From: a virus
Lineage: Duplodnaviria > Caudoviricetes
Strand: one strand, 5' to 3'
Virus record (IMG/VR): IMGVR_UViG_3300017748_000009
Span: 1-57,294 of that record
Length of the DNA: 57,294 bases
Below are positions 5,781 to 57,294 of the stretch, piece by piece; the stretch's first letter is position 1; every line of letters begins with the position of its first letter. Both the position numbers and the translations under genes were made by a program. The notes below the pieces were generated by a model. That model was not told where the DNA came from. It did not search any database and saw nothing but the letters and a program-made list of their open reading frames with translations.

Positions 5781-7400
5781 ATGAATCCAAAAGAACTGCA
5801 CTTTGATAGTGTCGGGCGAAAGAAGCTACTTAGTGGAATAACCCAAATAGCTAAAGCTGTTAAATCTACATTAGGACCCCAAGGGAACACAGTCTTAATA
5901 GAATCACAAGAACACATAGGAGGAATTACTGTGACGAAAGATGGAGTTACAGTAGCTAAATCAATTAATCTATTAGACCCTGTAGAAAACCTAGCGGTTA
6001 GAATAATGAAGGAAGCAGCAGATAAGACTGCAACCTCAGCCGGTGATGGAACAACTACAGCCATTGTATTAACTGAAAGTTTAGTATCTAAAGGTTTAGA
6101 GCTTATAGATGAAAAAGTTAATAGAACAGAAGTATTAAAGTTATTACAAGCTGAGTCTAATACTATTGTTGGTAAATTAAAAAAGAAATCAAAAAAAATA
6201 TCCGGTAAAAAACTAAAAGACGTTGCTGTTATTTCAGCAAACAATGATGAGTTTATTGGAGACTTAATATCTAAAGTATATAATAGCGTTGGTAAAGATG
6301 GTATTGTTACAGTTGAAAAGTCAAATAATCATGAGACATATTTTGAAACGACTAAAGGTATTAAAATTGACAGGGGATATAGTTCTCCACTATTTATTAA
6401 TGACCATAAACACGATGAGTGTATATATGAAAATATAAAAGTTTTAGTAGCTGATGCCGAGATAAGTAATATACTTCAAATAGAAAATGTATTAAAACAA
6501 GTAATTAATAATAAAGACAAGTTACTTATTATTGCTCCTTGCTCTGCAGGATTTACAAACACCATGGCAGCAAATGTAATGAAGAACGGATTAAAGTTAG
6601 TTAGTATACAACCACCCGACTTTGGATACAGACAACACGAGCTTATGAATGACATAGCTCTTGCTGTTGGCGCAACATACTTTAGCGAAAAGACAGGTGA
6701 CGATTTAAGTCTCATCGGTTATGACGATTTGGGTCATTGTTCCAAGGTGATAGTTGGGCGTGATTCAACAGTCGTCATAAAAGATGAGCAAGAAAACAGC
6801 GACTTAATAAAAGAAAGAGTTAAGGAATTATGGGGTGCCCATGATATAAGTAAAAGAAAACAAGACAAATCTTTTATTGAGAAACGTATTGCATCACTTA
6901 CAGGTGGTATTGGTGTTATGTATGTTGGTGGAAACACAGACTTAGAGCAAAAAGAATTATACGATAGGGTTGATGATGCTGTATGTGCAGTAAAGTCTGC
7001 GCTAGAAGAAGGAATACTACCCGGTGGTGGAGTGAGCTTATATAGAGAAGGACTATATTATGAAAACATAAATCCCTTTATTGGTGTTGATGAGCCTAAA
7101 GAATCACACGATTATCACACAAAAAAAATTGCTTACGCAATTTTAAGCTATGCCCTTAAGTCTCCGCTACTACAAATACTTTCTAATGCAGGTATGGATA
7201 ATGATATGTATTCAATTACAGACAATCCTGACGATGGGTATGATGTAAAGAATGAGAAGTGGGGTAATATGATGTCAATGGGAATTATAGACCCAATGAA
7301 AGTTACAAGGTCTGCTTTACAAAATGCAATAAGTGTAGCGATTACATTACTATCTACAAATGCAATAGTAACCATGATAAGAAAAAAGAATGAATCATGA
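5781..7400 (+). CDS. groEL: Phage-encoded chaperonin GroEL
   Basis: TLGP.G, TKDGVTVAK, AGDGTTTA, EEGILPGGG and GIIDP.KV motifs; no GGM tail. Confidence 0.97.
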   Translation: MNPKELHFDSVGRKKLLSGITQIAKAVKSTLGPQGNTVLIESQEHIGGITVTKDGVTVAKSINLLDPVENLAVRIMKEAADKTATSAGDGTTTAIVLTESLVSKGLELIDEKVNRTEVLKLLQAESNTIVGKLKKKSKKISGKKLKDVAVISANNDEFIGDLISKVYNSVGKDGIVTVEKSNNHETYFETTKGIKIDRGYSSPLFINDHKHDECIYENIKVLVADAEISNILQIENVLKQVINNKDKLLIIAPCSAGFTNTMAANVMKNGLKLVSIQPPDFGYRQHELMNDIALAVGATYFSEKTGDDLSLIGYDDLGHCSKVIVGRDSTVVIKDEQENSDLIKERVKELWGAHDISKRKQDKSFIEKRIASLTGGIGVMYVGGNTDLEQKELYDRVDDAVCAVKSALEEGILPGGGVSLYREGLYYENINPFIGVDEPKESHDYHTKKIAYAILSYALKSPLLQILSNAGMDNDMYSITDNPDDGYDVKNEKWGNMMSMGIIDPMKVTRSALQNAISVAITLLSTNAIVTMIRKKNES

Positions 7401-8931: not shown

Positions 8932-9330
8932 ATTAAGTGCGGGAAGTAAGCATAGAAAATCAAAACCAAAAGCTGTAGCTACTAATGTTAATATATCTAA
9001 TGTTGCTAAGCTCGAGCTTAGTAATAAAAATGAAAAGAGTAAAAGTAAGTTCAAACAAACAACTTATGTCACTTCTGATAATTCAGCAGCAAAGCTAAAG
9101 TTGAAGAACAAAAGTGGAGTTGGTCTTACAGGTAAAAGAGAAGTAAGTAAAAATGTTTACAAGGGTGCCATTAAAGATGATGATGGCTCTTACAAGTTGC
9201 TTAAAAACAGAAGCGTCAAAGGTAGAAATAAAAGCAAAAATAAAAATATCTCCAAGAAGCGTTACGAAAGAATCAAAAAGAGAATAAATAGAAAAGTGAA
9301 TAAGTAAAATTACAACAGAGTTATGAGTAA
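8907..9330 (+). repeat. 25-bp direct repeat AAAATTACAACAGAGTTATGAGTAA (8907-8931 and 9306-9330)
   Basis: Exact duplicate spanning the starts of two adjacent genes. Confidence 0.9.
8924..9307 (+). CDS. Highly basic Lys-rich protein
   Basis: 127-aa ORF, strongly K/R-rich. Confidence 0.75.
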   Translation: MSKLSAGSKHRKSKPKAVATNVNISNVAKLELSNKNEKSKSKFKQTTYVTSDNSAAKLKLKNKSGVGLTGKREVSKNVYKGAIKDDDGSYKLLKNRSVKGRNKSKNKNISKKRYERIKKRINRKVNK

Positions 9331-9454
9331 GCTAAAAAAAGGTAGTAAGCACAGAATGAAAAAAAAATTAACCAAAGGACAAAAGTATATTGCAAACCAA
9401 GCTGCTCCCTTTGATGAGATAGATAAAAATGATTTTAAAAAGTTAAACCAATAA
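9323..9454 (+). CDS. Small basic protein (43 aa)
   Basis: MSKLKKGSKHRMKKNLTKGQKYIANQAAPFDEIDKNDFKKLNQ. Confidence 0.7.
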   Translation: MSKLKKGSKHRMKKKLTKGQKYIANQAAPFDEIDKNDFKKLNQ

Positions 9455-9465
9455 ATTATAAAATT

Positions 9466-9627
9466 ATGCCAACAGTTAAATATAAGTGCGAAGATTCAGG
9501 AACAATGAAAACTAGAGTATTTCCTTATAATGCGGTGGGGAAAGCTCAAGCTACTGAATTTGCTAAAGTAATGGATGGCTCTATTAAGTACAACCCTAAT
9601 ATGTATTCTCCTAAAAAGGGATACTAA
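9466..9627 (+). CDS. Small protein with FPY..G..A motif (53 aa)
   Basis: MPTVKYKCEDSGTMKTRVFPYNAVGKAQATEFAKVMDGSIKYNPNMYSPKKGY; TAATG coupling. Confidence 0.7.
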   Translation: MPTVKYKCEDSGTMKTRVFPYNAVGKAQATEFAKVMDGSIKYNPNMYSPKKGY

Positions 9628-9866
9628 TGGGTGAGTTAAAAAAATGGAGAGACCAAAAATGGGTTCGTATTGGAACTGATGGTTCTATTCTTGGTGCCTG
9701 TGGCACAAGTAAGGATAAAAAGAACCCTGATAGATGTTTGCCTATTTCCAAAGCTAAATCAATGTCTAAGGCAGAAAGAGCAGCAACAGCTAAAAAGAAA
9801 AAAAAGTACGGAAGAAAAAAACAATTTGTTAGCAATACCAAGGCTGCTAGGGTTACAAATACTTAA
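9627..9866 (+). CDS. Small basic Cys-containing phage protein
   Basis: LKKW..KWV...CG...CLP..KA..MS..ER pattern common in marine phage hypotheticals. Confidence 0.8.
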   Translation: MGELKKWRDQKWVRIGTDGSILGACGTSKDKKNPDRCLPISKAKSMSKAERAATAKKKKKYGRKKQFVSNTKAARVTNT

Positions 9867-10147
9867 TGGAGGATGGATTTTTAATAGCATTATTATCGGC
9901 TTTTGGTATAAAAGAAATATGGTCAATCATTAAAAAAAAAATGGACCAAAGTGAAAGAGAGTCTGATAAACTAGATAATCTTTCATTAAAAATAATTGAA
10001 GAGCTAAAAGATAAAATAGATAGCTTAGAAATAAAAATAGAAGAGTTGATTAAAGAGAACACCGACTTAAAAATTAAAGTAGCTAAGATGGAGGAAAGAT
10101 TAATCAAAAGTGCAGCTCATAGTAAGAAAAGAAAATTTGACAGATAA
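9866..10147 (+). CDS. Membrane-anchored coiled-coil protein
   Basis: N-terminal hydrophobic segment followed by heptad repeats. Confidence 0.75.
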   Translation: MEDGFLIALLSAFGIKEIWSIIKKKMDQSERESDKLDNLSLKIIEELKDKIDSLEIKIEELIKENTDLKIKVAKMEERLIKSAAHSKKRKFDR

Positions 10148-10277
10148 AAAACATATAGAAGATTGGAAAGTAGACCAATACAATAGAAACAGGAATCACA
10201 AAGATTGGGTAACTGACTATAATGAGTTTTTATATGTTATGGATATTATAAGTAAAAGATATGGCAGAGAAATCTAA
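10137..10277 (+). CDS. Possible small hypothetical protein (46 aa, TTG start)
   Basis: Fills the gap, overlapping both neighbours: MTDKKHIEDWKVDQYNRNRNHKDWVTDYNEFLYVMDIISKRYGREI. Confidence 0.45.
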   Translation: MTDKKHIEDWKVDQYNRNRNHKDWVTDYNEFLYVMDIISKRYGREI

Positions 10278-10551
10278 AATGAAATGCAATGTTGTGGTTA
10301 AAAGCGATAGAGCAGGGAAAAAAAAGATGGTTAAAGCTTGTGAGGGTGGGAAAGAAAAACTCATCCATTTTGGAGCTACAGGATATGGACATAATTATTC
10401 AAGAGCTGCTAGGTCTTCATTTAGAGCAAGACACAAATGTAACACAGCAAAATCAAAGTTAACTGCAAGGTATTGGTCATGTAAAAAGTTATGGGCAGGT
10501 AAAGGTGGAAGTACAAAATCATCGCCAAAAAATAGACAAGGAAAATATTAG
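10261..10551 (+). CDS. Basic phage protein with HFG..GY...F.ARH.C...RYWSC..LW motif
   Basis: 96-aa K-rich ORF with a recognisable phage hypothetical motif. Confidence 0.8.
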   Translation: MAEKSKMKCNVVVKSDRAGKKKMVKACEGGKEKLIHFGATGYGHNYSRAARSSFRARHKCNTAKSKLTARYWSCKKLWAGKGGSTKSSPKNRQGKY

Positions 10552-10559
10552 TATATTTG
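10552..10559 (+). promoter_or_regulatory. -7 element TATATTTG
   Basis: Intergenic TAnnTTTG. Confidence 0.6.
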
Positions 10560-10587
10560 TAAAATAAAGTAATTTAAAATTTTAGTT

Positions 10588-10797
10588 ATGAAACAAGGAT
10601 ATAACGCAAGACTTGATGAATCTTTAGGTTCTAAGAACGGAAAAAAGTCACAGTCTTTAAAAGCCCGAAGAGATGAATCTAAGGCAATGTCAAAAAAAGA
10701 TTATGGACACGCTTATGGTGGTGACCATTCTATGGGTTATGAAGTACATTACCCAAAAGGTGTTAAAGCTCATTTGACAAGTATTATAAAAAAATAA
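10588..10797 (+). CDS. Small basic protein
   Basis: KQGYNARLDESLG...RRDESKAM. Confidence 0.75.
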   Translation: MKQGYNARLDESLGSKNGKKSQSLKARRDESKAMSKKDYGHAYGGDHSMGYEVHYPKGVKAHLTSIIKK

Positions 10798-10799
10798 CA

Positions 10800-10994
10800 A
10801 TGGCTGATAAAAAGGCACTTGGTGAAATGATTAGTAAAGGTAATCAAGGTAAGTTTACAGCTTGGGCTAAAAAAAATATGCCCGGGAAATCTGTATGCTC
10901 TGCTGCATCTACCGTTATGAAAAATAAAAGCAAGTACAAAACACCTATTGTTAAGATGGCTAACTTTGCCAAAAACTTTGGTTGTAGTAAATAA
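10800..10994 (+). CDS. Small basic protein
   Basis: GKFTAWAK...KMANFAKN. Confidence 0.75.
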   Translation: MADKKALGEMISKGNQGKFTAWAKKNMPGKSVCSAASTVMKNKSKYKTPIVKMANFAKNFGCSK

Positions 10995-10999
10995 AGGTT

Positions 11000-11140
11000 A
11001 TGGGAAAATTATTAATATGGTTAGGAACTAAAATTTCACTTTTGTGGAATAAAATATTATGTACTTGGAACTCAATATTAGTTAAGGCTACAGTTAAAGT
11101 AAATGATTGCCCTAACAAACTTTGTCAATGCAAAGATTAA
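11000..11140 (+). CDS. Small amphipathic Cys-tailed protein (46 aa)
   Basis: MGKLLIWLGTKISLLWNKILCTWNSILVKATVKVNDCPNKLCQCKD. Confidence 0.65.
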   Translation: MGKLLIWLGTKISLLWNKILCTWNSILVKATVKVNDCPNKLCQCKD

Positions 11141-11143
11141 TTT

Positions 11144-11338
11144 ATGCTTTTAAACGCTAAATATAGAAAACCATCTTCATCTCCTTCAATTGGACTTGGG
11201 GATTCTGTAGAAAAATTTACAAAGGCTACAGGAATAAAAAAAATAGTAAATAAAATAAGTGAATCTACAGGAAAACCATGTGGATGTGGAGAAAGAAAGG
11301 ATACATTAAACAGGATTTTTCCTTACAAAAAAAAATAA
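11144..11338 (+). CDS. Small protein with GLGD...TGIKK...CGC..RK..LN motif
   Basis: 64-aa ORF in the operon. Confidence 0.75.
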   Translation: MLLNAKYRKPSSSPSIGLGDSVEKFTKATGIKKIVNKISESTGKPCGCGERKDTLNRIFPYKKK

Positions 11339-11344
11339 AAAATT

Positions 11345-11872
11345 ATGGGCTATCTTAAAAATACAATTAATGCTCAGAGAGCTAGTTTAATACCATTGAA
11401 TGGAGGAAAAGCAGGAGCTTCAATTCCTGATATATCCACAAAATTAAACTTTTTATTATCTGTGGCTAGTGTTTCCGGTAATGTTCTAACTATTAAGACA
11501 CCTATTACCGGTGATGGTGCCGAATATGCCACACTTTTTGAAGCAGGTTTACAGCTAGGTATGATAGTTGTTGATACTACAACTAATGAAAGTTCTATAG
11601 TAGTTGATATAACCGATTCTACTCTAACGCTAAAAAATGGTGGTGGTAATTTTACCGGAAGTGAAGTACAAGTTTATGGTGGGTTCCAAAATGGAGCTTT
11701 AGTATATATTGGAAATGCAGGTTCTGCAGCTTCTCCTAACATTAATGTTATTACTTCAGGTGGAGATGATGTTACCTTTAAAGGGGTAAGCGCAGGTGAT
11801 GTACTACCGGTTCAGGTTACTCAAGTAATCAATGTAAGCGAGGAAATGTCTGACCTTATAGCTCTTTGGTAA
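11345..11872 (+). CDS. Putative virion structural/decoration protein
   Basis: Beta-rich, G/T/V-rich; C-terminal LYIG..G...VTFKGV.AG..LPVQV...LIALW. Confidence 0.65.
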   Translation: MGYLKNTINAQRASLIPLNGGKAGASIPDISTKLNFLLSVASVSGNVLTIKTPITGDGAEYATLFEAGLQLGMIVVDTTTNESSIVVDITDSTLTLKNGGGNFTGSEVQVYGGFQNGALVYIGNAGSAASPNINVITSGGDDVTFKGVSAGDVLPVQVTQVINVSEEMSDLIALW

Positions 11873-11940
11873 ATGGAAAATTATACTACAGACAACACTT
11901 TGGGTCTAGAAGATTTAGAGGTAACATATGAAATAAGAGA

Positions 11941-12096
11941 ATGTCTTTCGAAGATTTAAAAATATACGGAATTAACACAAGCGTAATGGCTATTACGTTT
12001 ACCCAAATAGAAATGGCATTGAAAATCATTTTGTTAGTTGCCACTATAATATATACAGTCCAAAGAATATATAACGATTCCAAAAAAAATAAGTAG
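11941..12096 (+). CDS. Small membrane protein, holin-like (51 aa)
   Basis: MSFEDLKIYGINTSVMAITFTQIEMALKIILLVATIIYTVQRIYNDSKKNK; hydrophobic with a basic tail, near the amidase. Confidence 0.7.
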   Translation: MSFEDLKIYGINTSVMAITFTQIEMALKIILLVATIIYTVQRIYNDSKKNK

Positions 12097-12221
12097 TGGC
12101 GCAGACAATTGGTTCAGCATATCAAAAGTCACCCACAAAAAAAAGACCCGGAGTGCATTCTAAAAATGCAAGTAAAGGGCAGACCGGCTATAAATCTAAA
12201 TATAGGGGTCAAGGAAGATGA
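12096..12221 (+). CDS. Basic peptide ending KYRGQGR (41 aa, GTG start)
   Basis: MAQTIGSAYQKSPTKKRPGVHSKNASKGQTGYKSKYRGQGR; stop overlaps the SET gene ATG. Confidence 0.7.
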   Translation: MAQTIGSAYQKSPTKKRPGVHSKNASKGQTGYKSKYRGQGR

Positions 12222-12610
12222 ATCAAAAGCATACAGGATACACAAATATGTTATCTGACCTGAATTGTAGTGAAGAGAAAATGCAAGAGGTCACAAATAT
12301 GTTAGAGGTAGTAAGCCTCTACAATCCTTATGTAGAAAGAAAAAACTCTAACATTCATGGTTATGGAATGTTTGCCAATAAATTAATTAAAAAAAATACT
12401 ATAATAGGATTAGGAACAATTAATGGTATATTTAAAACATATATTGGTAGATACACCAATCACTCTTCTAATCCAAATATAGAGTTTAAGTTTTTAAATA
12501 ATGAAGACGCAATAGCGTTAGCATTAAAAGATATACAAAAAAATAAAGAAATTTTGGTTGATTATAAAAACCATATATTAAATCGTAGATACTATGAGAG
12601 AAATAAATAA
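12218..12610 (+). CDS. SET-domain protein-lysine methyltransferase
   Basis: S.IHGYGMFA (GxG), GRYTNHS..PN (RxxNHS) and KDI...EILVDY (ELxxDY) motifs. Confidence 0.88.
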   Translation: MNQKHTGYTNMLSDLNCSEEKMQEVTNMLEVVSLYNPYVERKNSNIHGYGMFANKLIKKNTIIGLGTINGIFKTYIGRYTNHSSNPNIEFKFLNNEDAIALALKDIQKNKEILVDYKNHILNRRYYERNK

Positions 12611-13007
12611 AATAATATTGCATTGCTCTGCAACAAGAGAGGGCGATGATTCAATAGATACAGAAGTTATTGATAAGTGGCACAAGGCTAGAGGATGGTC
12701 AGGATGTGGTTATCATTTTGTAGTTCTTATAGATGGAACTATAGAGTTTGGTAGAATGGTTGATAAAATTGGGGCTCACACTAAGAATTTCAATAAAAGT
12801 TCAATCGGGATTTGTTATGTGGGAGGAGTAGAAAAGGATGGTAAAACACCAAAGGACACAAGAACACCGGAACAAGTTGTCTCTCTTTTAGTTATTTTAA
12901 GGTTTTTGAAAAAATCTTTCCCTGATGCTTCTATACACGGTCATAATGAGTTTTCAAACAAAGCCTGTCCGAGTTTCGATGTAAATCTAGAATATGGAAA
13001 CTTATGA
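12594..13007 (+). CDS. Endolysin, N-acetylmuramoyl-L-alanine amidase (T7-lysozyme-like)
   Basis: IILHCSAT, GYHFV, GAH..N..SIGICY.GG and GH.E...KACPSF motifs. Confidence 0.95.
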   Translation: MREINKIILHCSATREGDDSIDTEVIDKWHKARGWSGCGYHFVVLIDGTIEFGRMVDKIGAHTKNFNKSSIGICYVGGVEKDGKTPKDTRTPEQVVSLLVILRFLKKSFPDASIHGHNEFSNKACPSFDVNLEYGNL

Positions 13008-13405
13008 AAGAATTTTTAGCTAAAATATTTGGCGGTGCTGCAACCAATGTGGCTGAAGGACTATCAGGAATAGTAGATAAATTTGTGCAAACAAAAGAAG
13101 AGAAGGATGCTTTTGAAAAAGAGATGACTCAACTCTTTATGAAGCATGAAGCTGATATGGAAAAAAACATTACTGACCGTTGGGTTTCAGATAACTCAGC
13201 ATCTCAATTAACTAAAAATATTCGTCCTTTAGTTTTATTGTTTCTTGTAGTCTCTACTGTGGTTATGATATTCATTGACGCAGGTACGATTACATTTGAA
13301 GTAGAAGATAAATGGACAGACCTTTTGCAGCTTACTTTAATAACCGTGATTTCTGCATATTTTGGAGGTAGGTCATTTGAAAAGATTAATAAAAATAAAA
13401 AATAG
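13004..13405 (+). CDS. Holin (GTA 3TM-holin-like)
   Basis: RW.SD...KNIRP, two TM segments, AYFGGRS.EK; follows the endolysin. Confidence 0.8.
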   Translation: MKEFLAKIFGGAATNVAEGLSGIVDKFVQTKEEKDAFEKEMTQLFMKHEADMEKNITDRWVSDNSASQLTKNIRPLVLLFLVVSTVVMIFIDAGTITFEVEDKWTDLLQLTLITVISAYFGGRSFEKINKNKK

Positions 13406-13413
13406 TATCTTTG
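13406..13413 (+). promoter_or_regulatory. -7 element TATCTTTG
   Basis: Intergenic TAnnTTTG. Confidence 0.6.
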
Positions 13414-13435
13414 TATATAATTTAAATTTAATAAA

Positions 13436-13669
13436 ATGAGTGAGCAAGTAAAATTAAACGAAGAAGAATTAAAAAACCTAAGAGAAGCAACTGATTCTCT
13501 AAATAGATTAAAACTAGAATTAGGAAATCTAGAGGTTCAAAAGTTAGAGTATTATGGTAAAATAAACCATCTAACACAAACATTTAATAAGCTCGAAGAA
13601 GAGCTTATAGAAAAATACGGCAAAGAGTCTGTTATAAACATACAGACAGGCGAAGTAAAAAAGAAATAA
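13436..13669 (+). CDS. Small coiled-coil protein
   Basis: Ends LIEKYG...INIQTGEV. Confidence 0.75.
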   Translation: MSEQVKLNEEELKNLREATDSLNRLKLELGNLEVQKLEYYGKINHLTQTFNKLEEELIEKYGKESVINIQTGEVKKK

Positions 13670-13670
13670 T

Positions 13671-15983
13671 ATGGCAAAAATATCAACCTATGCAATTGAC
13701 TCTACCCCCTCTTTATCAGATAAAGTTATTGGGACAGACGTTGGAGATTCTAATATCACAAAGAATTATACGCTAGGTGATATTCATGGATTAATAACAA
13801 GTAATCTAACTAATTTATCAATCCCTATTTGGGATGATGCCAACACAGAGTTTGTTGACTCTGCTTTTGCGCAAGATAAATTCAGTTCACCAAAATATAT
13901 AACTTTTTCAACACTCCTATATCAACAAAACTTAGGTGGTTCTACTTACCTAGGAGATAACGCAGGAGCTGAAGATAATTTTGATGGAGAAGGTTCGGGT
14001 AACTTTAATGTAGGAATTGGATTCGAAACATTAGGTAAATTTACAACCGGTGCAAATCCTGTAAGTGGCGCAGCCTCAGCAGGGGAAAACGTAGCTTTAG
14101 GATACAGAGCATTAAAAAGCACAACTAAAGGGACAAACAATATTGCTATAGGGGCAGATTCATTAAATGCTAATACATTAGGATATAACAATGTTGCTAT
14201 CTCTAAAAACGCATTAGGCTCAGTAGTTAATTCTCAGCAGTCTTTAGCTACAAACGAATTTTCTATAGGTATAGGGTTTGCAGCAGGAAACCCATCTTCA
14301 AATCAAGTAAATACTTTAAGTGGTCATAGTGGGTCTACAATGGTTGGTCATCAAGCTATGGCTGATATTGTTTACGATACTGACGCCCCAAAACCTTCTA
14401 ACAATGTAGCTATAGGGTTAAGAACCTTTAGACAAACAGGAACAGCAACCCTTCCAAGTTATCTCTTTGATAATACAGCAATAGGTGCTTTTGCAGGATT
14501 TAGAGCTAGATTAGATACTAATGGTGGAGCAGCAACTCCTGAAAATTTTATTCTTAATGAAAATATTTTTATTGGAAAAAACGCAGGTTATGATATAAAG
14601 GCTGCTGCATTAGGTACGGCACCATCAGGTATGACTTTAGGAAAAATTTCTAATAACACTTTTATTGGAGGTACTTCAATTCCAAAGTATGTGGCTAGTG
14701 GTAATGTTATAATTGAAACAGGAGGAATAGGAAATACTCTAGGTGCTCAATCAGACATCACAGAGAATAACGCTGCAGCAACAAACCTTTTAATTACAGG
14801 AAATACTCAAGTAATTGGTAGTAGTAATATTATATTAAACCCTATTGTTGCAGAAGGGTCCGAATCCGGTATAAAAAATACTATTGGACAACAAGGAACA
14901 GGTAATGAGAACAATTTTTCTGCTCACAATATAATTTTATCTAACAGGTATCCCGGAGAATATGGAGGTGCTGATAGTAACAAACTTGGTCAAAATAACA
15001 AGATTACCATTACTAACGGTGGAGTTTTAGATAAGGCTAAACTAAGAAACAATCTTCTTATTGGTACTACAGGGGCTACTTTAAACGCAGATACAACTAA
15101 TAATTCTGACGGTGTACGAGATAATACTATTATTAATGGAGAAGATATAGATATACTTACTACTGATTCCGGATTGGGTCATGCTAATACAATTGTTAAT
15201 AGTAAGTTCTTGCAATTGTCAGGTTCTCGTAGCAATTTCATAGTTAACACTAGGGGTGCAAGTGCAACAGCTAAATTTAATCTTCTTACAGAAACTTCTA
15301 TAGGACAAAACTCAAGTGGTAATGTTTTATTTAATGCCTCAAATTATTTAGGTACCGTCAGGTCTGACGTTAGAGGTTCCTCGAACTTTGTAATGAATTC
15401 CGATACTGCTATAATGGTTGGTAATTTTAATACGGTATTAGGTGCAAAAGGAACAATTGCCGGAAACAATAATTTAATGCACGGTTCAAGTGGACAAAAA
15501 ATAACCGGGAATAACCATTTTATATTTGGTCAAAACAATGAAATTCTTGATACTGATGCAGGTACTTCAACTAGAGTAGGTGTAATTGGTTTTGACAACG
15601 TAGTAACAACAGGTACTAACGGAGTTAATAGTAATAACGCTTTTGTTGGTGGAGCAGGTAATGCTGTTTCCGCAGGTATAAATAGTTTTGTATTTGGTCA
15701 GGGTCTTGTAAGCACTAAAAGGAATTCAACTATTGTAGGTAAGTTCAACAAAGATGATGGTGAGACAGGTACGACATCATTATTTGAAGTAGGGTGTGGT
15801 GTTAACACCACCAACCGAAACAATGCATTAGCAGTAAAAGGCTCCTCAGCCGATACGGTTATATATATGGACCAATTGGTGGCTCAAAATTATATAAATG
15901 ATACAGCAGCAGGAGCAGCAGGTATTTTGTTAGGAGGATTATATCACACGGACGGAGTAGTAAAAATAAACACTACAGCGTAA
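13671..15983 (+). CDS. Tail fibre/receptor-binding protein (YadA-head-like beta-roll repeats)
   Basis: Repeated NVAIG/NIAIG/NTAIG units; G/N-rich. Confidence 0.8.
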   Translation: MAKISTYAIDSTPSLSDKVIGTDVGDSNITKNYTLGDIHGLITSNLTNLSIPIWDDANTEFVDSAFAQDKFSSPKYITFSTLLYQQNLGGSTYLGDNAGAEDNFDGEGSGNFNVGIGFETLGKFTTGANPVSGAASAGENVALGYRALKSTTKGTNNIAIGADSLNANTLGYNNVAISKNALGSVVNSQQSLATNEFSIGIGFAAGNPSSNQVNTLSGHSGSTMVGHQAMADIVYDTDAPKPSNNVAIGLRTFRQTGTATLPSYLFDNTAIGAFAGFRARLDTNGGAATPENFILNENIFIGKNAGYDIKAAALGTAPSGMTLGKISNNTFIGGTSIPKYVASGNVIIETGGIGNTLGAQSDITENNAAATNLLITGNTQVIGSSNIILNPIVAEGSESGIKNTIGQQGTGNENNFSAHNIILSNRYPGEYGGADSNKLGQNNKITITNGGVLDKAKLRNNLLIGTTGATLNADTTNNSDGVRDNTIINGEDIDILTTDSGLGHANTIVNSKFLQLSGSRSNFIVNTRGASATAKFNLLTETSIGQNSSGNVLFNASNYLGTVRSDVRGSSNFVMNSDTAIMVGNFNTVLGAKGTIAGNNNLMHGSSGQKITGNNHFIFGQNNEILDTDAGTSTRVGVIGFDNVVTTGTNGVNSNNAFVGGAGNAVSAGINSFVFGQGLVSTKRNSTIVGKFNKDDGETGTTSLFEVGCGVNTTNRNNALAVKGSSADTVIYMDQLVAQNYINDTAAGAAGILLGGLYHTDGVVKINTTA

Positions 15984-15998
15984 TTTAATTTAAATTAA

Positions 15999-16229
15999 AT
16001 GGACATACGAAAAATTTCAGTAGGTCCTGATTATAAGTCAGGGGGAATGCACTACCTAGTAGGGCAGGGAGTCCTAAATGGAGGCTATATAATTCATTTA
16101 ATTAAATACAGCTCCGAACAAGAAGCATATCAAATTTTTATATTAGACCAAAGTGAAGGTGAAGTTTTATTGTGGAAACAATTTAATTCTACCATGCCCA
16201 TTACGTTAGAGTTTAATATAAATTTTTAA
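15999..16229 (+). CDS. Hypothetical protein
   Basis: IRKISVG.DYK...MHYLVGQ. Confidence 0.75.
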   Translation: MDIRKISVGPDYKSGGMHYLVGQGVLNGGYIIHLIKYSSEQEAYQIFILDQSEGEVLLWKQFNSTMPITLEFNINF

Positions 16230-16231
16230 TA

Positions 16232-16414
16232 ATGTCAGAGGAAGAAAAAAAAGAGCTCATTAACAAAGCGCAAGTTTTGAAAATGAAAAAGGAAAAGATA
16301 GACGATTGGATGGAACAAATGTCTATTGCTGACGAGATTCACAATATTGAAATGAAATTAAATGGAGTCAAGCCGACTGATTCATATATTGATTGTATTG
16401 GTTGTGGCTCATAA
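16232..16414 (+). CDS. Small protein ending CIGCGS
   Basis: 60-aa ORF with a terminal CxxC. Confidence 0.7.
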   Translation: MSEEEKKELINKAQVLKMKKEKIDDWMEQMSIADEIHNIEMKLNGVKPTDSYIDCIGCGS

Positions 16415-16422
16415 ATTAAATT

Positions 16423-17004
16423 ATGAAATCACCAACTCAGTTTATAGTTAAACCCTTTGAGGGTAGGCGTTATAGTAACGTAAAAAAATTATCTGATTTA
16501 AATATAATACTAGATACTTCCGAAGAGTCCGCAGCTTTCTCTAATAGACAAGCTTTGGTTTTAGAAACACCCATAATGTATAATGGTCCTATTGAAAAGG
16601 GAGACCTTCTTTTAGTTCACCACAACGTATTTAAATTTTATAATGATATGTATGGTAGAAGGCAGAGTGGTAAAAGTTTTTTTAAGGACAACAAATTTTT
16701 TATTGACCAAGACCAATACTATATGTATAAAAAAAACAATTCTTGGAATACTGTAGAACCATACTGCTTTGTATCACCTATGCCTTCTACGGAAACATAT
16801 ATATATAAACCCTTTTCTTTTGAACCATTGATGGGTATTATGGAGTACCCTTCAGACTCTAATAAAAAAAATGGAATAAAAAAAGGAGATATTGTTACCT
16901 TTATGCCTGACTCAGAGTATGAGTTTAGATTTGAAAAAAAAGTTTTATATAGAATTAAATCAAAAAATATAGTAGCATATGAACCTCAAGGAAACAAAGC
17001 TTAA
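16423..17004 (+). CDS. Putative tandem GroES-like co-chaperonin
   Basis: Two repeats of the GroES pattern (FIVKP...A.V..P...I.KGD.LLV; CFVSP...G....GIKKGDIVTF...YRIKSKNIVA). Confidence 0.6.
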   Translation: MKSPTQFIVKPFEGRRYSNVKKLSDLNIILDTSEESAAFSNRQALVLETPIMYNGPIEKGDLLLVHHNVFKFYNDMYGRRQSGKSFFKDNKFFIDQDQYYMYKKNNSWNTVEPYCFVSPMPSTETYIYKPFSFEPLMGIMEYPSDSNKKNGIKKGDIVTFMPDSEYEFRFEKKVLYRIKSKNIVAYEPQGNKA

Positions 17005-27763: not shown

Positions 27764-30700
27764 ATGGCGAATTTAAAAAGAAATTTTGTTGCCGGTAAAA
27801 TGAATAAGAGTCTCGATGAAAGACTTTTACCTAATGGTCAGTACATAGATGCCGTTAATGTGCGTTTGGGGTCTACTGAAGCTTCAGAAATAGGAGCTGT
27901 GGAGTTGTCTAAAGGAAATACTAGACTAACTACTCTTTCTTTTAACAACACAAATATATCTTCTTCAGCTAAGTGTATAGGAGCTTTCGAAAACGGAGAA
28001 AAAGAAACACTATATTGGTTTGTACACGACCCTGCTTTTCCTGTCGGAGCTACAGGTAAATGTGATATGATTGTTTCTTTAGAAACAAGTTCAGACGTAT
28101 TAACTTATCATGTTGTTAGTATTGATGATGGTGGTGGAGTAAATACAACATTAAACTTTGATGATAAACAATTAATAGTAGGAATTAATATTGTTGAGAA
28201 TCTTTTATTTTTTACAGATAATTTTAATCCTCCAAGATTTATAAATGTTTCTCCCGTAGATAGTAATCCATATCCTAACCCTGTATTAAATATAGACCAA
28301 TTTTCAGAAAAAGTTTTTTTAGTAATTAAAGAGCCACCTGCAAATGCTCCAAATATTTCTCCCCTTACATCTAGCAATGCTAATAATTATTTAGAGGACA
28401 GGTTTGTTTGTTTTGCTTATAGATATAGATATGCTGATAATGCATTTTCAGCAACATCTCCATTCTCAAATGCAGCTTTTATTCCGGGACCTTTTGATTT
28501 TAGGTTTGATACATTTTTAAACGGAGGAATGTTAAACACGGCTAATATAGTTCGAATTAATTATAACACCGGAGGTCCTTTAGTTTTAGGTATTGATTTA
28601 CTATTTAAAGATAATAGCACTAATGTTATAAAATTAATAGAGTCTTTTAATAAAGCTGATTTAGGGTTACCTAACAATAGCACACAAACTTACACTTTTA
28701 GTAATAGCAAAGTTTTTCAAGTATTGCCGGACACAGAAATATTTAGAACATTCGACAATGTTCCGTTACAAGCTAAAGCTCAAACTTTAATGGGCAATAG
28801 ATTAATGTACGGTAATTACTTTGATGGAAATGATTTAATTGATAAAAATGGGAGTCCTTTAAAATTAGAATATTTTACAAACAGTATTTCTACACCTGTT
28901 GATAGTGGTGAATTACCTATCACATTAGAAACCGGAACATATAATATAGACCCATCGTTTCAAAACACTCAAATTCCAAACTCTAGAATGAGTTTAGATT
29001 TTACAAATTTAGACTTGGTTCAAGGAGCTTCTTTTACGATAGATGCTGACTTAAACCATTCGACTTTTACAAGTGGTACTTTGTCTGATACTAATGTTAA
29101 TATTTCCATTGATTTTTCCTTTTTGCTCCCGGCAAGTTATCCCGATGCATATACTATGGCGAACTCACAAGAGTTTATAGATGCTATATCAGCAGTAGAA
29201 GCAAACTTTGCTGACTCTTGTAACGGAACTTCAATGACTGACCAATTTAATTGTGATGCACTTCAAACTTTAGATGGCACATACAATAAAACATCAAGCG
29301 GTACGGTAGCCTTGAATCAAGGGTTTTTAATTATAACATCTCAAGCCACTCCTAATATTGTAAAAATACAAATTAATGCTCTACAGTATACTGAAACAGG
29401 ACCACCGGTAGATGAGGTATATGAATACCAAACTATTTCCATAGTTACAGGAGATTATACTAAAATAGCAAATGCAACTAGTTTACATAGTAATAGAGGT
29501 TACGAGGTGGGTATGATATATTTAGATGAGTTTTCTAGAGCATCAACTGCTTTAGTAAGTGAAAACAACACCGAACACTTTTCTTGTGGTAGTGCAACAA
29601 ATCAAAATAAAATACAAGTACAAATACCTCCATCACAAACCCCACCTGCTTGGGCAAGATATTATAAGTTTTGCATAAAACCTGATAAAGAAAACTATGA
29701 TATTATTTATACTAATTTATTTTTTGAAGATACAACTTTAGGGTCAACTTGGTTTTTATTAGAAGGAGAAAACAGTAGAAAAATAGAAGAAGGAGATGAG
29801 CTTATAGTAAAGGCTGACACAAATGGACCAATGAATTCCTGTACTAGAGTAACGGTTTTAGCAAAAGAAGCTAAAGGCAGAAACTTTATTCAACCTCCCC
29901 CGGTAGACGAAGCAGGGGAGCCTATAGGGGGTACTGATAGTGATGGAAATGAATTACCGGGAGTACCTGCAGGAACATATATGAGGTTAAGGACTAATCA
30001 GTTTACAACCGCTGCAGGAGATAACCCAATTAGTCAAGCCGAAGGTGCAGGGGATGCAAAGGGGAGAGGAGCAAATGATTGTAGAGCAATAAGGATGGAG
30101 GTCGGAAGTGTATCGAATCCTGCTACTCCTACAACACCATACGACCCCTTAGACCCTGCAACGTATGATAAAGTAGATTTAGATATACCGGCAGGTTCAA
30201 CATTAAGTGTAAAAATTAATAACTTAAGAAGAGGGGGAAGCGGTAATTCTTGTGAATTAAGGGAATTAATAACAGAAGCGAGTGTAACAGCATCGGAAGA
30301 TTACGCCAATATTTATGATTTCTTTATTGCACAAAACATATATGGTGCATTGGTTTCTGCCACAATAAATAGAACTGATAGTGGAGATTCACCTCCGGAG
30401 TTAGATTTTCCTAACCAATCTTTACAAACGAGTAACGCAAGTATTCCTTGTAATGGTAATGTATCTATTGCATGGGAAAGAGAAGGACAGACTACAGGTA
30501 AAAAGGGGCAACTTGTATTTTTTGCGAAATCAAGTTATTCCTGTGGAAGTAATAATAATAGAAAAACTAGAATTGTTGCATCAATTACATTAATTCGTAG
30601 AAATACTTTAATAGTATTTGAATCGGTCCCCCAAGATGCTTCACCGGACTTATGGTATCAAAGCGCAGAAACCTTTAATATTATTACAAATGATAACACC

Positions 30701-33370
30701 TGTAATTTTACAGTAAGTGTAGCTTCTGCTGAACCAAGTTCTATTGACTTTGATTACCTTGACCAAAACAATCAAAGTGCAACCATTACGGTGTCACCGG
30801 GTCAAACACAAACAAATGTTGTAGGTGTATGTGGAAGTATGGTAACAAGCTCCCAAACTCCTCCGGTTTCCTCCTCAAACATAACTATAAGCAGCCTAAC
30901 TTTAACAGCAGGAACTCATAGTGGTAATGTTCAAAATCAAACCGCAACTGAAGATGCAATTATTAATACTGATTTTTTTAATTGCTATACGTTTGGAAAC
31001 GGAGTTGAAAGTAGCAAGATAAGAGACTCAATAGTTGGAAAACCTTTAGAGCTAGGAAATAGAACAACTAGTACAAGTGAAAAAGAATTTGAAAAAGCAC
31101 ACAGGTTTTCTGATATAACATATAGTGGGGTATACAATGGGGAAAATAATGTTAATAAACTAAATGAATTTAATTTAGGTCTACTTAATTTTAAAACTCT
31201 TGAAGATGAATATGGTCCAATAACCTTAATGGATGGAAGGGCTACAGATATTCTTGTTTTACAAGAAGATAAAATTTCATATGTCCTTACAGGTAAAAAT
31301 TTATTAAGCGATTCTACAGGAGGTGGTGCAGTAACTTCTGTCCCACAGGTACTTGGTACTCAAATAGCAAGAATTGAAAATTATGGAAATAGTAATAATC
31401 CTGAAAGCTTTGCTAAATGGGGACCTGACAAATTTTTTACAGATGCTAAAAGAGGGGCTGTACTTCAATTAAAAGGAAGTTCCGCACAGAACGAATCTCT
31501 TCAGGTAATATCAAATTCAGGTATGCGTTCTTATTTTAGAGATTTATTTATTAGTGGATTTAATACTTTTAAGTTTGGGGGATATGACCCCTACATGGAT
31601 GAGTATGTATTATCTAATACACCTATTGAAGTACCGGTTCCTGAGACACAAATACCCTGTGGTCTTACAAGAAGTTTTAATTTTTGCAAAGGGACAGATG
31701 AAGATTTTTTGTATGATTTAGGTGCAGACGTAGGGAATGTGGAGGTAAACTTTACAGTAGAGGGGATGGTTCCACTACAAACATTTGAAATTACTGCTAC
31801 ATACCCTGACCCTAATGGAGCTGTAGTATTCTATCAAGTTATTTCAGCAAATGGCTCTTATGCAATTACTTTTGATAAAAATCTTGTAAATGAAAGCTTA
31901 GTAAGGGTTCTTTTTCAAAATCTCACTTCCGATGGAAATACTCTTTGTATAAACATTAACCTTACAGTTTTTTGCCCTAATGCGGTTCAAATGAATATTA
32001 TACAAGTGGCATTAACCTCTAACAATGAATCAGGGAAGTTTATACATGATGAATACAGATGGAATGATACCACGTTTTTAAGTTCCTTACAATCAGAGCA
32101 AATAGAATTTCAATCCGGACAAGGGCTCATTGTGTCTCAATTTACTCAAATAAGTGGAGCACAGGGTGGAAATATAGCACCTGCTGATGGAGCAATTGTA
32201 AGTATTATTTCTAATAAAATTACATCATCCGGTGATGATTTTGATTTTAGTATAAATAACAATGAGTTTAGATTTTTAAGAACTAGCACTACATATCTTA
32301 ATACTCCAACAAGCATTGCAAGTTTATTATCAGCTTCAACTCAAACCGCCAATGTAACAGGACAAGGGAATCAGTTTTCGGGAACATTTACTATGCCGAC
32401 TAGTTCTGACTCTAATTTGTATTTAATATATGATTATAGAAAATCAACACAAGCAGAGCTGTGTTTTTCTAGTACCGATGAAATCGACGCCTGTTGTGGA
32501 TGTTCTTCAGGAACTACACCTTCAAATAGAAATGCAACTTTATGTAGGTCATATGAATCAGGTGTTATAACAAATACTTCAGGTAGTCCGGACAATGTAG
32601 TTATAGCTGTTGCTGCAGGAGTTACAAACGGAACATTCGTTACATTAAATGGAGTTGACTCTGATTGTGAATACTTAGTGGGTGGAGAAACTTCTGCGTC
32701 CCCTACTCATACAGTAAATAATATTATTGTAAGTCAAACATCATGTAGTGAAAGCTCAGGTTCATATTTAATAACGGCAGGACAAGTTGGCGGTAGTATT
32801 ACTTTTACCACAGCTCTTGGAGTAACTCAAACCCAATTTCTTGAATCAAATTTTCCACCTTTTACATTATGTGTTACCGATATAGTAACAGATGGAAATC
32901 CAAATTCAACTATTTCTATAGAATTTACCGATTGCGGTTGTGCGAGTAATAATCTTGAACTAAAAAGGTGTGATTTATTAGAGTCTGCAGGAGACCCCCC
33001 ACAAATTGAAGTAATGGCAAATGACGGAACTATAATACCCGGAGAATTTGTAGACGGAACAGGTACTGAATCAGGGTGCTTGTATAGAGTTATTGCATTC
33101 ACCACAAATGCTATAACAATGACAGGGACTAAAAGCACACAAAGTTCTTGCACAAATCAATGTAATACATATATTCTAATTAATAGTGGCGGTAATAAAG
33201 CTGTAAATCAATCATATATAGATTGTAATGGTAATTCAGATTTTGTAAGTTTAGCCCCCGGTGCAAGTGCTACTAGGTGTATAAAAAATGTAGGTTTTAA
33301 TTTAGCAAGTGGAATCTCTTTAAACTTTTTAAACTGTGGATGTGCAGCACCACAAATTATAATTAAATAA
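27764..33370 (+). CDS. Tail nozzle/stabilisation-like protein with Cys-rich C-terminal extension
   Basis: F..GKMN..LDERL.P.G.Y.DA.N, LFFTD..NPPR, QEDKIS and FFTDAKRG.V beta-propeller motifs. Confidence 0.75.
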   Translation: MANLKRNFVAGKMNKSLDERLLPNGQYIDAVNVRLGSTEASEIGAVELSKGNTRLTTLSFNNTNISSSAKCIGAFENGEKETLYWFVHDPAFPVGATGKCDMIVSLETSSDVLTYHVVSIDDGGGVNTTLNFDDKQLIVGINIVENLLFFTDNFNPPRFINVSPVDSNPYPNPVLNIDQFSEKVFLVIKEPPANAPNISPLTSSNANNYLEDRFVCFAYRYRYADNAFSATSPFSNAAFIPGPFDFRFDTFLNGGMLNTANIVRINYNTGGPLVLGIDLLFKDNSTNVIKLIESFNKADLGLPNNSTQTYTFSNSKVFQVLPDTEIFRTFDNVPLQAKAQTLMGNRLMYGNYFDGNDLIDKNGSPLKLEYFTNSISTPVDSGELPITLETGTYNIDPSFQNTQIPNSRMSLDFTNLDLVQGASFTIDADLNHSTFTSGTLSDTNVNISIDFSFLLPASYPDAYTMANSQEFIDAISAVEANFADSCNGTSMTDQFNCDALQTLDGTYNKTSSGTVALNQGFLIITSQATPNIVKIQINALQYTETGPPVDEVYEYQTISIVTGDYTKIANATSLHSNRGYEVGMIYLDEFSRASTALVSENNTEHFSCGSATNQNKIQVQIPPSQTPPAWARYYKFCIKPDKENYDIIYTNLFFEDTTLGSTWFLLEGENSRKIEEGDELIVKADTNGPMNSCTRVTVLAKEAKGRNFIQPPPVDEAGEPIGGTDSDGNELPGVPAGTYMRLRTNQFTTAAGDNPISQAEGAGDAKGRGANDCRAIRMEVGSVSNPATPTTPYDPLDPATYDKVDLDIPAGSTLSVKINNLRRGGSGNSCELRELITEASVTASEDYANIYDFFIAQNIYGALVSATINRTDSGDSPPELDFPNQSLQTSNASIPCNGNVSIAWEREGQTTGKKGQLVFFAKSSYSCGSNNNRKTRIVASITLIRRNTLIVFESVPQDASPDLWYQSAETFNIITNDNTCNFTVSVASAEPSSIDFDYLDQNNQSATITVSPGQTQTNVVGVCGSMVTSSQTPPVSSSNITISSLTLTAGTHSGNVQNQTATEDAIINTDFFNCYTFGNGVESSKIRDSIVGKPLELGNRTTSTSEKEFEKAHRFSDITYSGVYNGENNVNKLNEFNLGLLNFKTLEDEYGPITLMDGRATDILVLQEDKISYVLTGKNLLSDSTGGGAVTSVPQVLGTQIARIENYGNSNNPESFAKWGPDKFFTDAKRGAVLQLKGSSAQNESLQVISNSGMRSYFRDLFISGFNTFKFGGYDPYMDEYVLSNTPIEVPVPETQIPCGLTRSFNFCKGTDEDFLYDLGADVGNVEVNFTVEGMVPLQTFEITATYPDPNGAVVFYQVISANGSYAITFDKNLVNESLVRVLFQNLTSDGNTLCININLTVFCPNAVQMNIIQVALTSNNESGKFIHDEYRWNDTTFLSSLQSEQIEFQSGQGLIVSQFTQISGAQGGNIAPADGAIVSIISNKITSSGDDFDFSINNNEFRFLRTSTTYLNTPTSIASLLSASTQTANVTGQGNQFSGTFTMPTSSDSNLYLIYDYRKSTQAELCFSSTDEIDACCGCSSGTTPSNRNATLCRSYESGVITNTSGSPDNVVIAVAAGVTNGTFVTLNGVDSDCEYLVGGETSASPTHTVNNIIVSQTSCSESSGSYLITAGQVGGSITFTTALGVTQTQFLESNFPPFTLCVTDIVTDGNPNSTISIEFTDCGCASNNLELKRCDLLESAGDPPQIEVMANDGTIIPGEFVDGTGTESGCLYRVIAFTTNAITMTGTKSTQSSCTNQCNTYILINSGGNKAVNQSYIDCNGNSDFVSLAPGASATRCIKNVGFNLASGISLNFLNCGCAAPQIIIK

Positions 33371-57000: not shown

Positions 57001-57294
57001 TTATAAATGTCCCCCTGTTTTTAATTGTGGACAATCATATCTCCATTCGCTATCTGACTCTGCTTCATCCATTCCTTTAAAATCATACAGACCTGTGCCA
57101 TGCACATACTCTGCTTTACTCATAGCTTCATCAATCTTGGTATCATAAAGGAAACATCTATCTTGTAGAAAATCAAGCAAGGTGGTATACTTCCCATGCT
57201 CAAGTTTGTAATGCTCAAACTCATCCTTGTCGACTTCTATTTCTACCTCAGCAAATTTGTGGTAGACACTTCGGTTTTGAATTTTTACTTTCAT
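57001..57294 (-). CDS. Hypothetical early protein
   Basis: 97-aa ORF ending GGHL; its start is duplicated at 121-123. Confidence 0.75.
   Translation of the reverse strand: MKVKIQNRSVYHKFAEVEIEVDKDEFEHYKLEHGKYTTLLDFLQDRCFLYDTKIDEAMSKAEYVHGTGLYDFKGMDEAESDSEWRYDCPQLKTGGHL
57172..57294. repeat. Terminal direct repeat, copy 2
   Basis: Identical to 1-123. Confidence 0.95.

Follow-up and report, generated by a model that had tools for sequence, protein, structure and literature searches.

The IMG/VR record IMGVR_UViG_3300017748_000009 (57,294 bp, GC 33.3%; its whole length is referred to here as the window) represents a complete virus with direct terminal repeats, which we measured as an exact 123-bp repeat at positions 1-123 and 57172-57294. 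Within it we analyzed a locus where the gene for a 41-aa polybasic peptide (12096..12221, + strand, GTG start) is directly followed by the gene for a 130-aa protein with a minimal SET domain (12218..12610, + strand, ATG start). The original prediction had placed both genes inside a lysis cassette and had described them as a lysine methyltransferase coupled to a histone-tail-like peptide. The arrangement itself was confirmed. The stop codon TGA of the peptide gene is overlapped by the ATG of the SET gene (ATGA, 4 nt), and the 3′ end of the SET gene overlaps by 17 nt the start, at 12594, of an N-acetylmuramoyl-L-alanine amidase (endolysin) gene (12594..13007, + strand; PF01510, E 5.2e-13; phrog_822, E 1.3e-53). 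A holin gene comes next (13004..13405, + strand; phrog_3427, E 2.2e-21; PF11351, E 5.9e-4, below cut-off), and the amidase and holin assignments, taken together, are firm by Pfam and PHROG. The Lys-rich array that had been located upstream also exists, at 10261-11338. Since both the SET and the peptide open reading frames (ORFs) are kept in related contigs, neither is a chance frame.

The 130-aa product matches PF00856 over residues 74-117 (E 1.1e-10; 42.3 bits, cut-off 22.4), as well as PHROG 34170 (E 2.6e-14) and PHROG 28741, neither of which has an assigned function. It is composed of an N-terminal two-helix extension (approximately residues 6-26), a segment that both the alignment and the model indicate is kept across the family, and a SET core (approximately residues 37-125). 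All three motifs named in the original prediction are present. The GxG motif, through which SET enzymes generally bind S-adenosylmethionine (SAM), occurs as H47-G48-Y49-G50; the RxxNHS motif, which belongs to the pseudoknot of SET enzymes, occurs as R78-Y-T-N81-H82-S83 and aligns to ARYINHSCAPN of KMT2C; and the ExxxDY motif with the catalytic tyrosine occurs as E111-I-L-V-D115-Y116. In an alignment of 55 family members, every one of which matches PF00856, residues S44, G50, N81, H82, N87, E111 and Y116 are invariant and G48 is found in at least 90% of the sequences. The best match in a sequence search of the PDB had an E-value of 0.028, which is too weak to stand alone, and a fold search was therefore needed. 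The AlphaFold2 model of the protein is confident (predicted local distance difference test score, pLDDT, 91.7; predicted template modeling score, pTM, 0.84), and Foldseek retrieved 244 PDB chains at E ≤0.001, those listed being all SET enzymes. The top PDB match was vSET (3kma_A, E 4.9e-7), followed by the SET domains of EZH2, MLL1 and ASH1L, and the top match in BFVD was a SET protein of an uncultured Caudovirales phage (template modeling score, TM, 0.80; root-mean-square deviation 1.5; 31% identity). In NCBIfam, the only SET match, to the Legionella AnkI/LegAS4 model, was far below threshold (24.8 bits; cut-off 550).

Judging from motif conservation and the predicted structure, the 130-aa ORF probably encodes a compact, active SAM-dependent protein-lysine methyltransferase. 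By analogy with the SET family, its GxG and NHS motifs would most likely bind SAM, and a target lysine carried on a flexible basic segment would enter a channel closed by Tyr116. Alternatively, the protein may not act as a lysine methyltransferase in vivo, being either a degenerate or structural version of the fold or an enzyme with a non-protein or non-lysine substrate. Consistent with this, the stretch between GxG and NHS falls about 30 residues short of its KMT2C counterpart (query residues 38-68 and 77-118 against chain residues 18-48 and 88-132), the Pfam alignment is confined to the C-terminal half of the Pfam model, and there is no post-SET element. However, the residues that SAM binding and catalysis require show no or almost no variation across 55 diverse relatives, the structural model is a confident one, and its best structural match, vSET, is a protein of similar size reported to be an active enzyme (PMC10117894). 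We thus consider loss or change of the activity to be quite improbable.

The SET protein belongs to a large family. A profile built from eight phage homologues matched 2,418 representative clusters at E ≤0.001, 202 of them at E ≤1e-10, and the best matches were mostly either 115-155 aa long or approximately 260-300 aa long with a C-terminal SET domain. A pattern scan of viral contigs gave 409 matched stretches, of which 346 were confirmed, while in genome contigs eight of nine pattern matches were confirmed, every one in contigs of metagenome-assembled genomes. The mini-SET family is common in low-GC phages of environmental samples. A long form of 268-307 aa with an N-terminal extension was observed in L137-L139, L143-L176 and L354-L423, loci with a median GC of 0.50, as well as in Pseudoalteromonas phage PH1 (L002 3554-4384, ANY29560.1); several of these genes follow a gene for a 111-aa protein. 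We found no literature study of phage SET proteins.

The peptide, whose sequence includes KSPTKKRPGVHSK...KYRGQGR, is 41 aa long with a net charge of +10, and 51% of its residues are G, P, S, N, Q or T. Its helical hydrophobic moment reaches at most 0.30 per 18 residues, giving no amphipathic-helix signal, and this K-rich peptide is probably disordered. The ORF is kept at the same site in three related contigs with 24 invariant positions. A scan of viral contigs showed a relative to be encoded in at least 520 of 600 matched stretches, and a diverged sub-type had a relative in 178 of 250. In the protein database we found 564 clusters of 40-43 aa, all of them labeled "hypothetical" and without a Pfam family. 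The peptide is a true gene under purifying selection at the protein level: entropies at the three codon positions of the core are 0.41, 0.40 and 1.14, the third position varying almost three times more than the others, and among 69 distinct peptide DNA sequences there were 24,755 synonymous vs. 9,645 non-synonymous codon differences. Residues Y9, K16, P18, G19, H21, S22, K23, N24, A25, S26, K33, G38, Q39 and G40 are invariant in 35 peptides. The description of the peptide as histone-tail-like thus holds for its composition only, as the family has a near-invariant core of its own and no relation to histones was found.

Searches of annotated sequences added little to this picture. The peptide matched PHROG 17967 and 516 weakly, no function being assigned to either, and had no match in NCBIfam; the Protein Atlas returned only unnamed clusters of 40-42 aa. 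A tblastn search of GenBank phages gave only matches at E 0.8, although the low-complexity filter may hide relatives; one of these matches, in Pelagivirus S35C6, is an unannotated 41-aa copy with the same pattern (L001 4001-4123; AP013542.1 26634-26756). Longer or fused forms amounted to 67 sporadic matches among 5,557 candidates, mostly in contigs shorter than 3 kb and none with PF00856; the peptide therefore has no consistent fusion. This unannotated family of about 41 aa, with its near-invariant core, is among the more widespread small phage proteins that we sampled.

We assessed the co-occurrence of the two genes from both sides. Peptide loci were sampled as the closest 80 (L016-L095) and 80 of the diverged type (L185-L264), and SET loci as 80 of 123, 80 of 346 and 71 of 71 loci with flanks of 3-4 kb, about 10 contigs being common to the first two SET lists according to their names. 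SET was detected in none of the closest 80 peptide loci, either by tblastn or by SET hidden Markov models (HMMs), and in one of the 80 diverged loci, so that 159 of the 160 sampled peptide loci are without it. Conversely, a broad peptide HMM found the peptide inside the SET flanks in only nine contigs across the three SET samples. It was present in none of the 71 sampled long-form SET loci, which are probably outside the peptide's range, as their median GC is 0.50 and the peptide was found at a GC of 0.27-0.40. Near-complete genomes may hold one gene without the other: G006 (90% complete) and G007 (100%) encode the peptide and have no PF00856 match, and G001 (91%) and G003 (96%) encode SET and lack the peptide. 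One further record carries both genes approximately 8.4 kb apart and on opposite strands. The peptide core shows no difference between SET-linked and SET-less copies.

These distributions argue against a dedicated writer/substrate pair, which had been the central proposal for this locus, and they do not support a writer/substrate operon as a general rule. The peptide cannot be the general target of the SET family, because complete SET-bearing genomes lack it. Rather, it is an independent phage protein, much more widespread than SET and with a function of its own, which we would guess to be that of a small nucleic-acid-binding protein or a head-associated counter-ion. Its surroundings are diverse, with 24 kinds of downstream and 18 kinds of upstream neighbor in the 160 loci. 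Among 155 loci, the commonest upstream neighbor is a prohead-protease-like protein (phrog_3017, 53 loci); two clusters whose representatives match holin phrog_3427 account for 24 and 9 loci, and a 51-aa membrane protein of the type found in the window for another 9. The most frequent setting of the peptide is a prohead-protease-like gene upstream with head-module-like genes downstream, or a position adjoining a holin.

The location of SET also varied. The 80 SET loci form 36 clusters at ≥70% identity, and SET follows at least six different kinds of gene, including those for proteins of 143-145 aa, 73-89 aa and 187 aa, an 803-aa primase/helicase-like protein and a 2-oxoglutarate (2OG)-oxygenase-like protein. 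Random placement of SET in relatives had been named in advance as an outcome that would speak against the pair, and placement in at least six neighborhoods comes close to it. In 42 of the 80 loci SET is all that is shared with the neighborhood in the window, and in L109-L119 it lies on the strand opposite to the lysis genes, 1.7-2.7 kb from the nearest shared gene. The SET gene has a GC of 26.2%, compared with 33.3% for the genome, which places it at the 0.7th percentile of 393-nt windows.

The junction at which SET lies in the window can be compared with relatives that lack it. Three contigs (L070, L071 and L080) are syntenic with the window, having an amidase approximately 70% and a holin approximately 64% identical to those of the window, and show the order peptide, amidase, holin without SET. 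In these contigs it is the amidase ATG that uses the same GGAAGATGA junction (ATGA overlap) used by SET here. We favor, with some reservation, the interpretation that SET is an accessory enzyme, a lysine methyltransferase whose gene was inserted into a junction of high turnover, and not one half of a fixed enzyme-substrate pair. The SET gene would have been inserted precisely where the peptide gene ends and ahead of the amidase, or else retained there only in the window lineage. Adjacency would then be mainly positional, because the slot downstream of the peptide is one of high turnover. Sporadic insertion had been the fallback of the original prediction, and it is the explanation that fits best, given that relatives join the peptide straight to the amidase through the same overlap.

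Two recurrent neighbors of SET were also observed. A protein of 156-194 aa is encoded directly upstream of SET in L132, L141, L142, L160, L161, L145, L147, L170, L171 and L173, comprising four clusters, with weak similarity either to 2OG-Fe(II) oxygenases (E 0.0031, below cut-off) or to DUF6445 (E 1.4e-5); as the second recurrent neighbor, it could hint at a paired modification activity. A protein of 72-89 aa without a family match is encoded directly upstream of SET in 11 loci (L105, L106, L112, L118, L120 and L123-L128) and directly downstream of the peptide in L021, L026, L029, L134 and L284. This shared neighbor ties SET and the peptide to one accessory-gene hot spot, the interval between the lysis and terminase genes.

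Several observations nevertheless weigh against reading SET as an accessory gene that landed beside the peptide by position. The peptide and SET samples, other than the long-form one, are lists of the best 80 loci and not censuses, and most of the sampled contigs are fragments. The low GC of the SET gene may partly be explained by the K/N/I-rich composition of its protein. A SET gene that follows a peptide gene and overlaps its last codons is found in two contexts unrelated to each other, the lysis cassette of the window (4 nt) and L140 (17 nt). In L140, a more sensitive HMM revealed a diverged peptide directly upstream of a SET protein 41% identical to that of the window, in the order MazG, DUF1064, 58-aa ORF, peptide, SET, 71-aa ORF and class II ribonucleotide reductase (RNR), a region of nucleotide metabolism and not of lysis genes. 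All eight metagenome relatives of the L140 SET protein (69-100% identical) keep the pair, within the order 58-63-aa ORF, peptide, SET, 71-aa ORF, RNR. In the relatives L088, L089 and L095, a homologue of the small ORF is followed by the peptide and then by an RNR beta subunit, without SET. In a third lineage (L134, L284, L304 and L305), the peptide lies two genes upstream of SET and within 1 kb, in the order holin, peptide, 74-85-aa protein, 187-188-aa protein, SET, 90-93-aa protein and large terminase (TerL). By a rough slot arithmetic of our own, in which each flank offers about nine gene slots and the peptide is given to be within the flanks, finding it immediately upstream in two of three lineages has P ~0.03; without the ascertained case, P is ~0.2.

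One may suppose that SET has the peptide as its physiological substrate in those lineages where its start overlaps the stop of the peptide gene, and that lysine methylation tunes the binding of the peptide to nucleic acid or to the envelope. Besides the recurrence of the codon-overlapping arrangement with both genes diverged, this would agree with the retention of the pair in the eight L140-type relatives and in four of four contigs of the window lineage, with the third lineage and with the K-rich and probably disordered nature of the peptide, and it has a precedent in the reported action of cpnSET on Hc1 and of Go1-SET on MC1-alpha (PMC10117894). Conservation inside a lineage nonetheless counts as a single event, because within each lineage the region is syntenic as a whole. 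The turnover of the slot downstream of the peptide, with its 24 kinds of neighbor, also makes repeat landings less surprising. The recurrent L140-type adjacency is suggestive, not significant, and the many peptide loci and near-complete genomes that carry one gene alone speak against this explanation, which we regard as unlikely. The same low probability applies to the 41-46-aa peptide serving as a "tail-only" SET substrate wherever the genes overlap, the pairing having arisen or been kept in two contexts. If true, it would mean that phages encode a writer together with a dedicated basic peptide, methylation tuning a packaged or nucleic-acid-bound counter-ion peptide. A complex prediction of SET, peptide and SAM scored 0.02 (mark 0.32), which is neither for nor against binding. 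Across the sampled phages, the two genes adjoin in two contexts and lie two genes apart in a third, and the pairing is absent from 159 of 160 peptide loci and from all but nine of the SET contigs.

If SET is an accessory gene, as we prefer, its target would be a protein other than specifically the peptide. In the window, every ORF of at least 100 aa with a recognizable function between 5781 and 46882 is on the + strand, a block that includes a GroEL-like chaperonin, a tail-spike-like protein, the large terminase and the portal. SET is probably transcribed along with the lysis and structural genes of this long block, and the shared strand and tight gene packing indicate that it is probably co-expressed with late genes. 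This raises the alternative that the substrates of SET are other small basic phage proteins produced concurrently, for instance virion-internal proteins or those of the array at 10261-11338, which would amount to late-stage methylation of structural or DNA-associated proteins. In several lineages homologues of the array proteins are found within 4 kb of SET (p64d in 18, p46 in 14, p96 in 12 and p69 in 11 of 80 loci), and the first array protein, p96, has a match to phrog_220, annotated as "minor head protein and DNA pilot" (E 1.8e-13), as well as a weak one to DUF5754. However, the same proteins are present in the SET-less relatives L071 and L080, elsewhere SET follows replication-type genes or sits on the opposite strand, and more than half of the SET loci share nothing else with the window neighborhood. 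We regard this as a minority possibility, one that deserves somewhat more weight than the peptide as substrate. Considering the target by itself, a host protein is the likeliest class, because SET occurs in peptide-less genomes and in both early-type and late-type neighborhoods, yet we would place it just short of an even chance. Other small basic phage proteins are clearly less probable than this, the peptide where it is adjacent is less probable again, and the remainder goes to other targets.

The array itself (10261..11338, + strand) consists of five small ORFs encoding basic proteins of 96, 69, 64, 46 and 64 aa, identified by composition, with K+R fractions of 0.15-0.27 and net charges of +5 to +22; we report it as context. 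Some of these proteins carry Cys motifs, and related contigs encode homologues whether or not they have SET. The lysis block begins with the gene for a 51-aa single-pass membrane protein (11941..12096, + strand), taken from the ORF list and kept in relatives, whose TAG stop is overlapped by the GTG of the peptide gene. In 9 of 77 loci a protein of this kind is encoded ahead of the peptide, and in L007-L014, relatives without the peptide and SET, its gene overlaps the amidase from directly upstream. It may be a second holin or an antiholin-type partner in the lysis cassette. Downstream of the holin is the gene for a 77-aa K/E-rich protein (13436..13669, + strand), also from the ORF list, with homologues near SET elsewhere: within 4 kb in 21 of 80 loci, and no more than approximately 300 nt upstream of it in other lineages.

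Elsewhere in the window, the GroEL-like chaperonin (539 aa; phrog_5725, E 1.5e-130) is encoded at 5781-7400, and the structural block contains two very long + strand ORFs at 27764-33370 (1,868 aa) and 38729-46882 (2,717 aa). A promoter and terminator scan of 9000-16500 gave the same counts as shuffled sequences and was uninformative. A DNA search against GenBank phages returned a single weak match, covering 8% of 4 kb, and the virus therefore has no annotated close relative among them.

SET enzymes are best known as eukaryotic chromatin writers, and to our knowledge targets have been identified for only a few of those from prokaryotes or viruses. The wide occurrence of a compact SET family among phages of environmental samples is of interest in this respect, as its target would reveal a role of lysine methylation in phage infection. 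Phage SET proteins are already annotated automatically, though they are uncharacterized. A0A6J5PTS6 of an uncultured Caudovirales phage, PHROG 34170 and 28741 and ANY29560.1 of phage PH1, which matches the SET protein of the window by tblastn (30% identity, E 1e-4), belong to the same family; many members differ from the window protein in being 260-300 aa long with an N-terminal extension and in residing in higher-GC phages.

Among characterized systems, the closest in structure is vSET (PBCV-1 A612L), the minimal, dimeric chlorovirus H3K27 methyltransferase. Both are viral SET cores of approximately 120-130 aa without pre-SET or post-SET zinc modules, both have the NHS and DY motifs, and 3kma_A is the best solved fold (TM 0.67 on the target, 106 columns). 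However, the two are not significantly similar in sequence (phmmer E 0.94, residues 35-63 only), and the phage protein has the additional N-terminal two-helix segment. The phage SET protein is not a vSET-like histone methyltransferase by sequence, the resemblance being one of fold and size only, and since the virus is a tailed phage with terminase, portal, amidase and holin genes, we would not expect a nucleosomal histone to be its target.

On the peptide side, the phiKT gp28 "disruptin" is reported to be a cationic, outer-membrane-disrupting peptide whose gene accompanies lysis genes, and is predicted to be an amphipathic helix (10.1101/515445). The 41-aa peptide resembles it in being small, cationic and located among lysis genes, and has a holin-like upstream neighbor in 33 of 155 loci. 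It differs in being commonest beside the prohead-protease-like gene, not beside lysis genes. We considered a disruptin-type identity and dropped it, because the low hydrophobic moment and the high content of G, P, S, N, Q and T do not make an amphipathic helix of the kind described for gp28.

With regard to substrate, a comparison can be drawn with two cellular, not phage, enzymes: cpnSET of Chlamydia, reported to methylate its own basic DNA-binding protein Hc1, and Go1-SET of Methanosarcina, reported to methylate its own DNA-binding protein MC1-alpha (PMC10117894). None of the searches made here related the peptide to Hc1 or MC1. These systems, as they are reported, follow the logic that the original prediction proposed for the phage locus, in which the substrate of the SET enzyme is a small, basic protein that binds nucleic acid and is encoded in the same genome.

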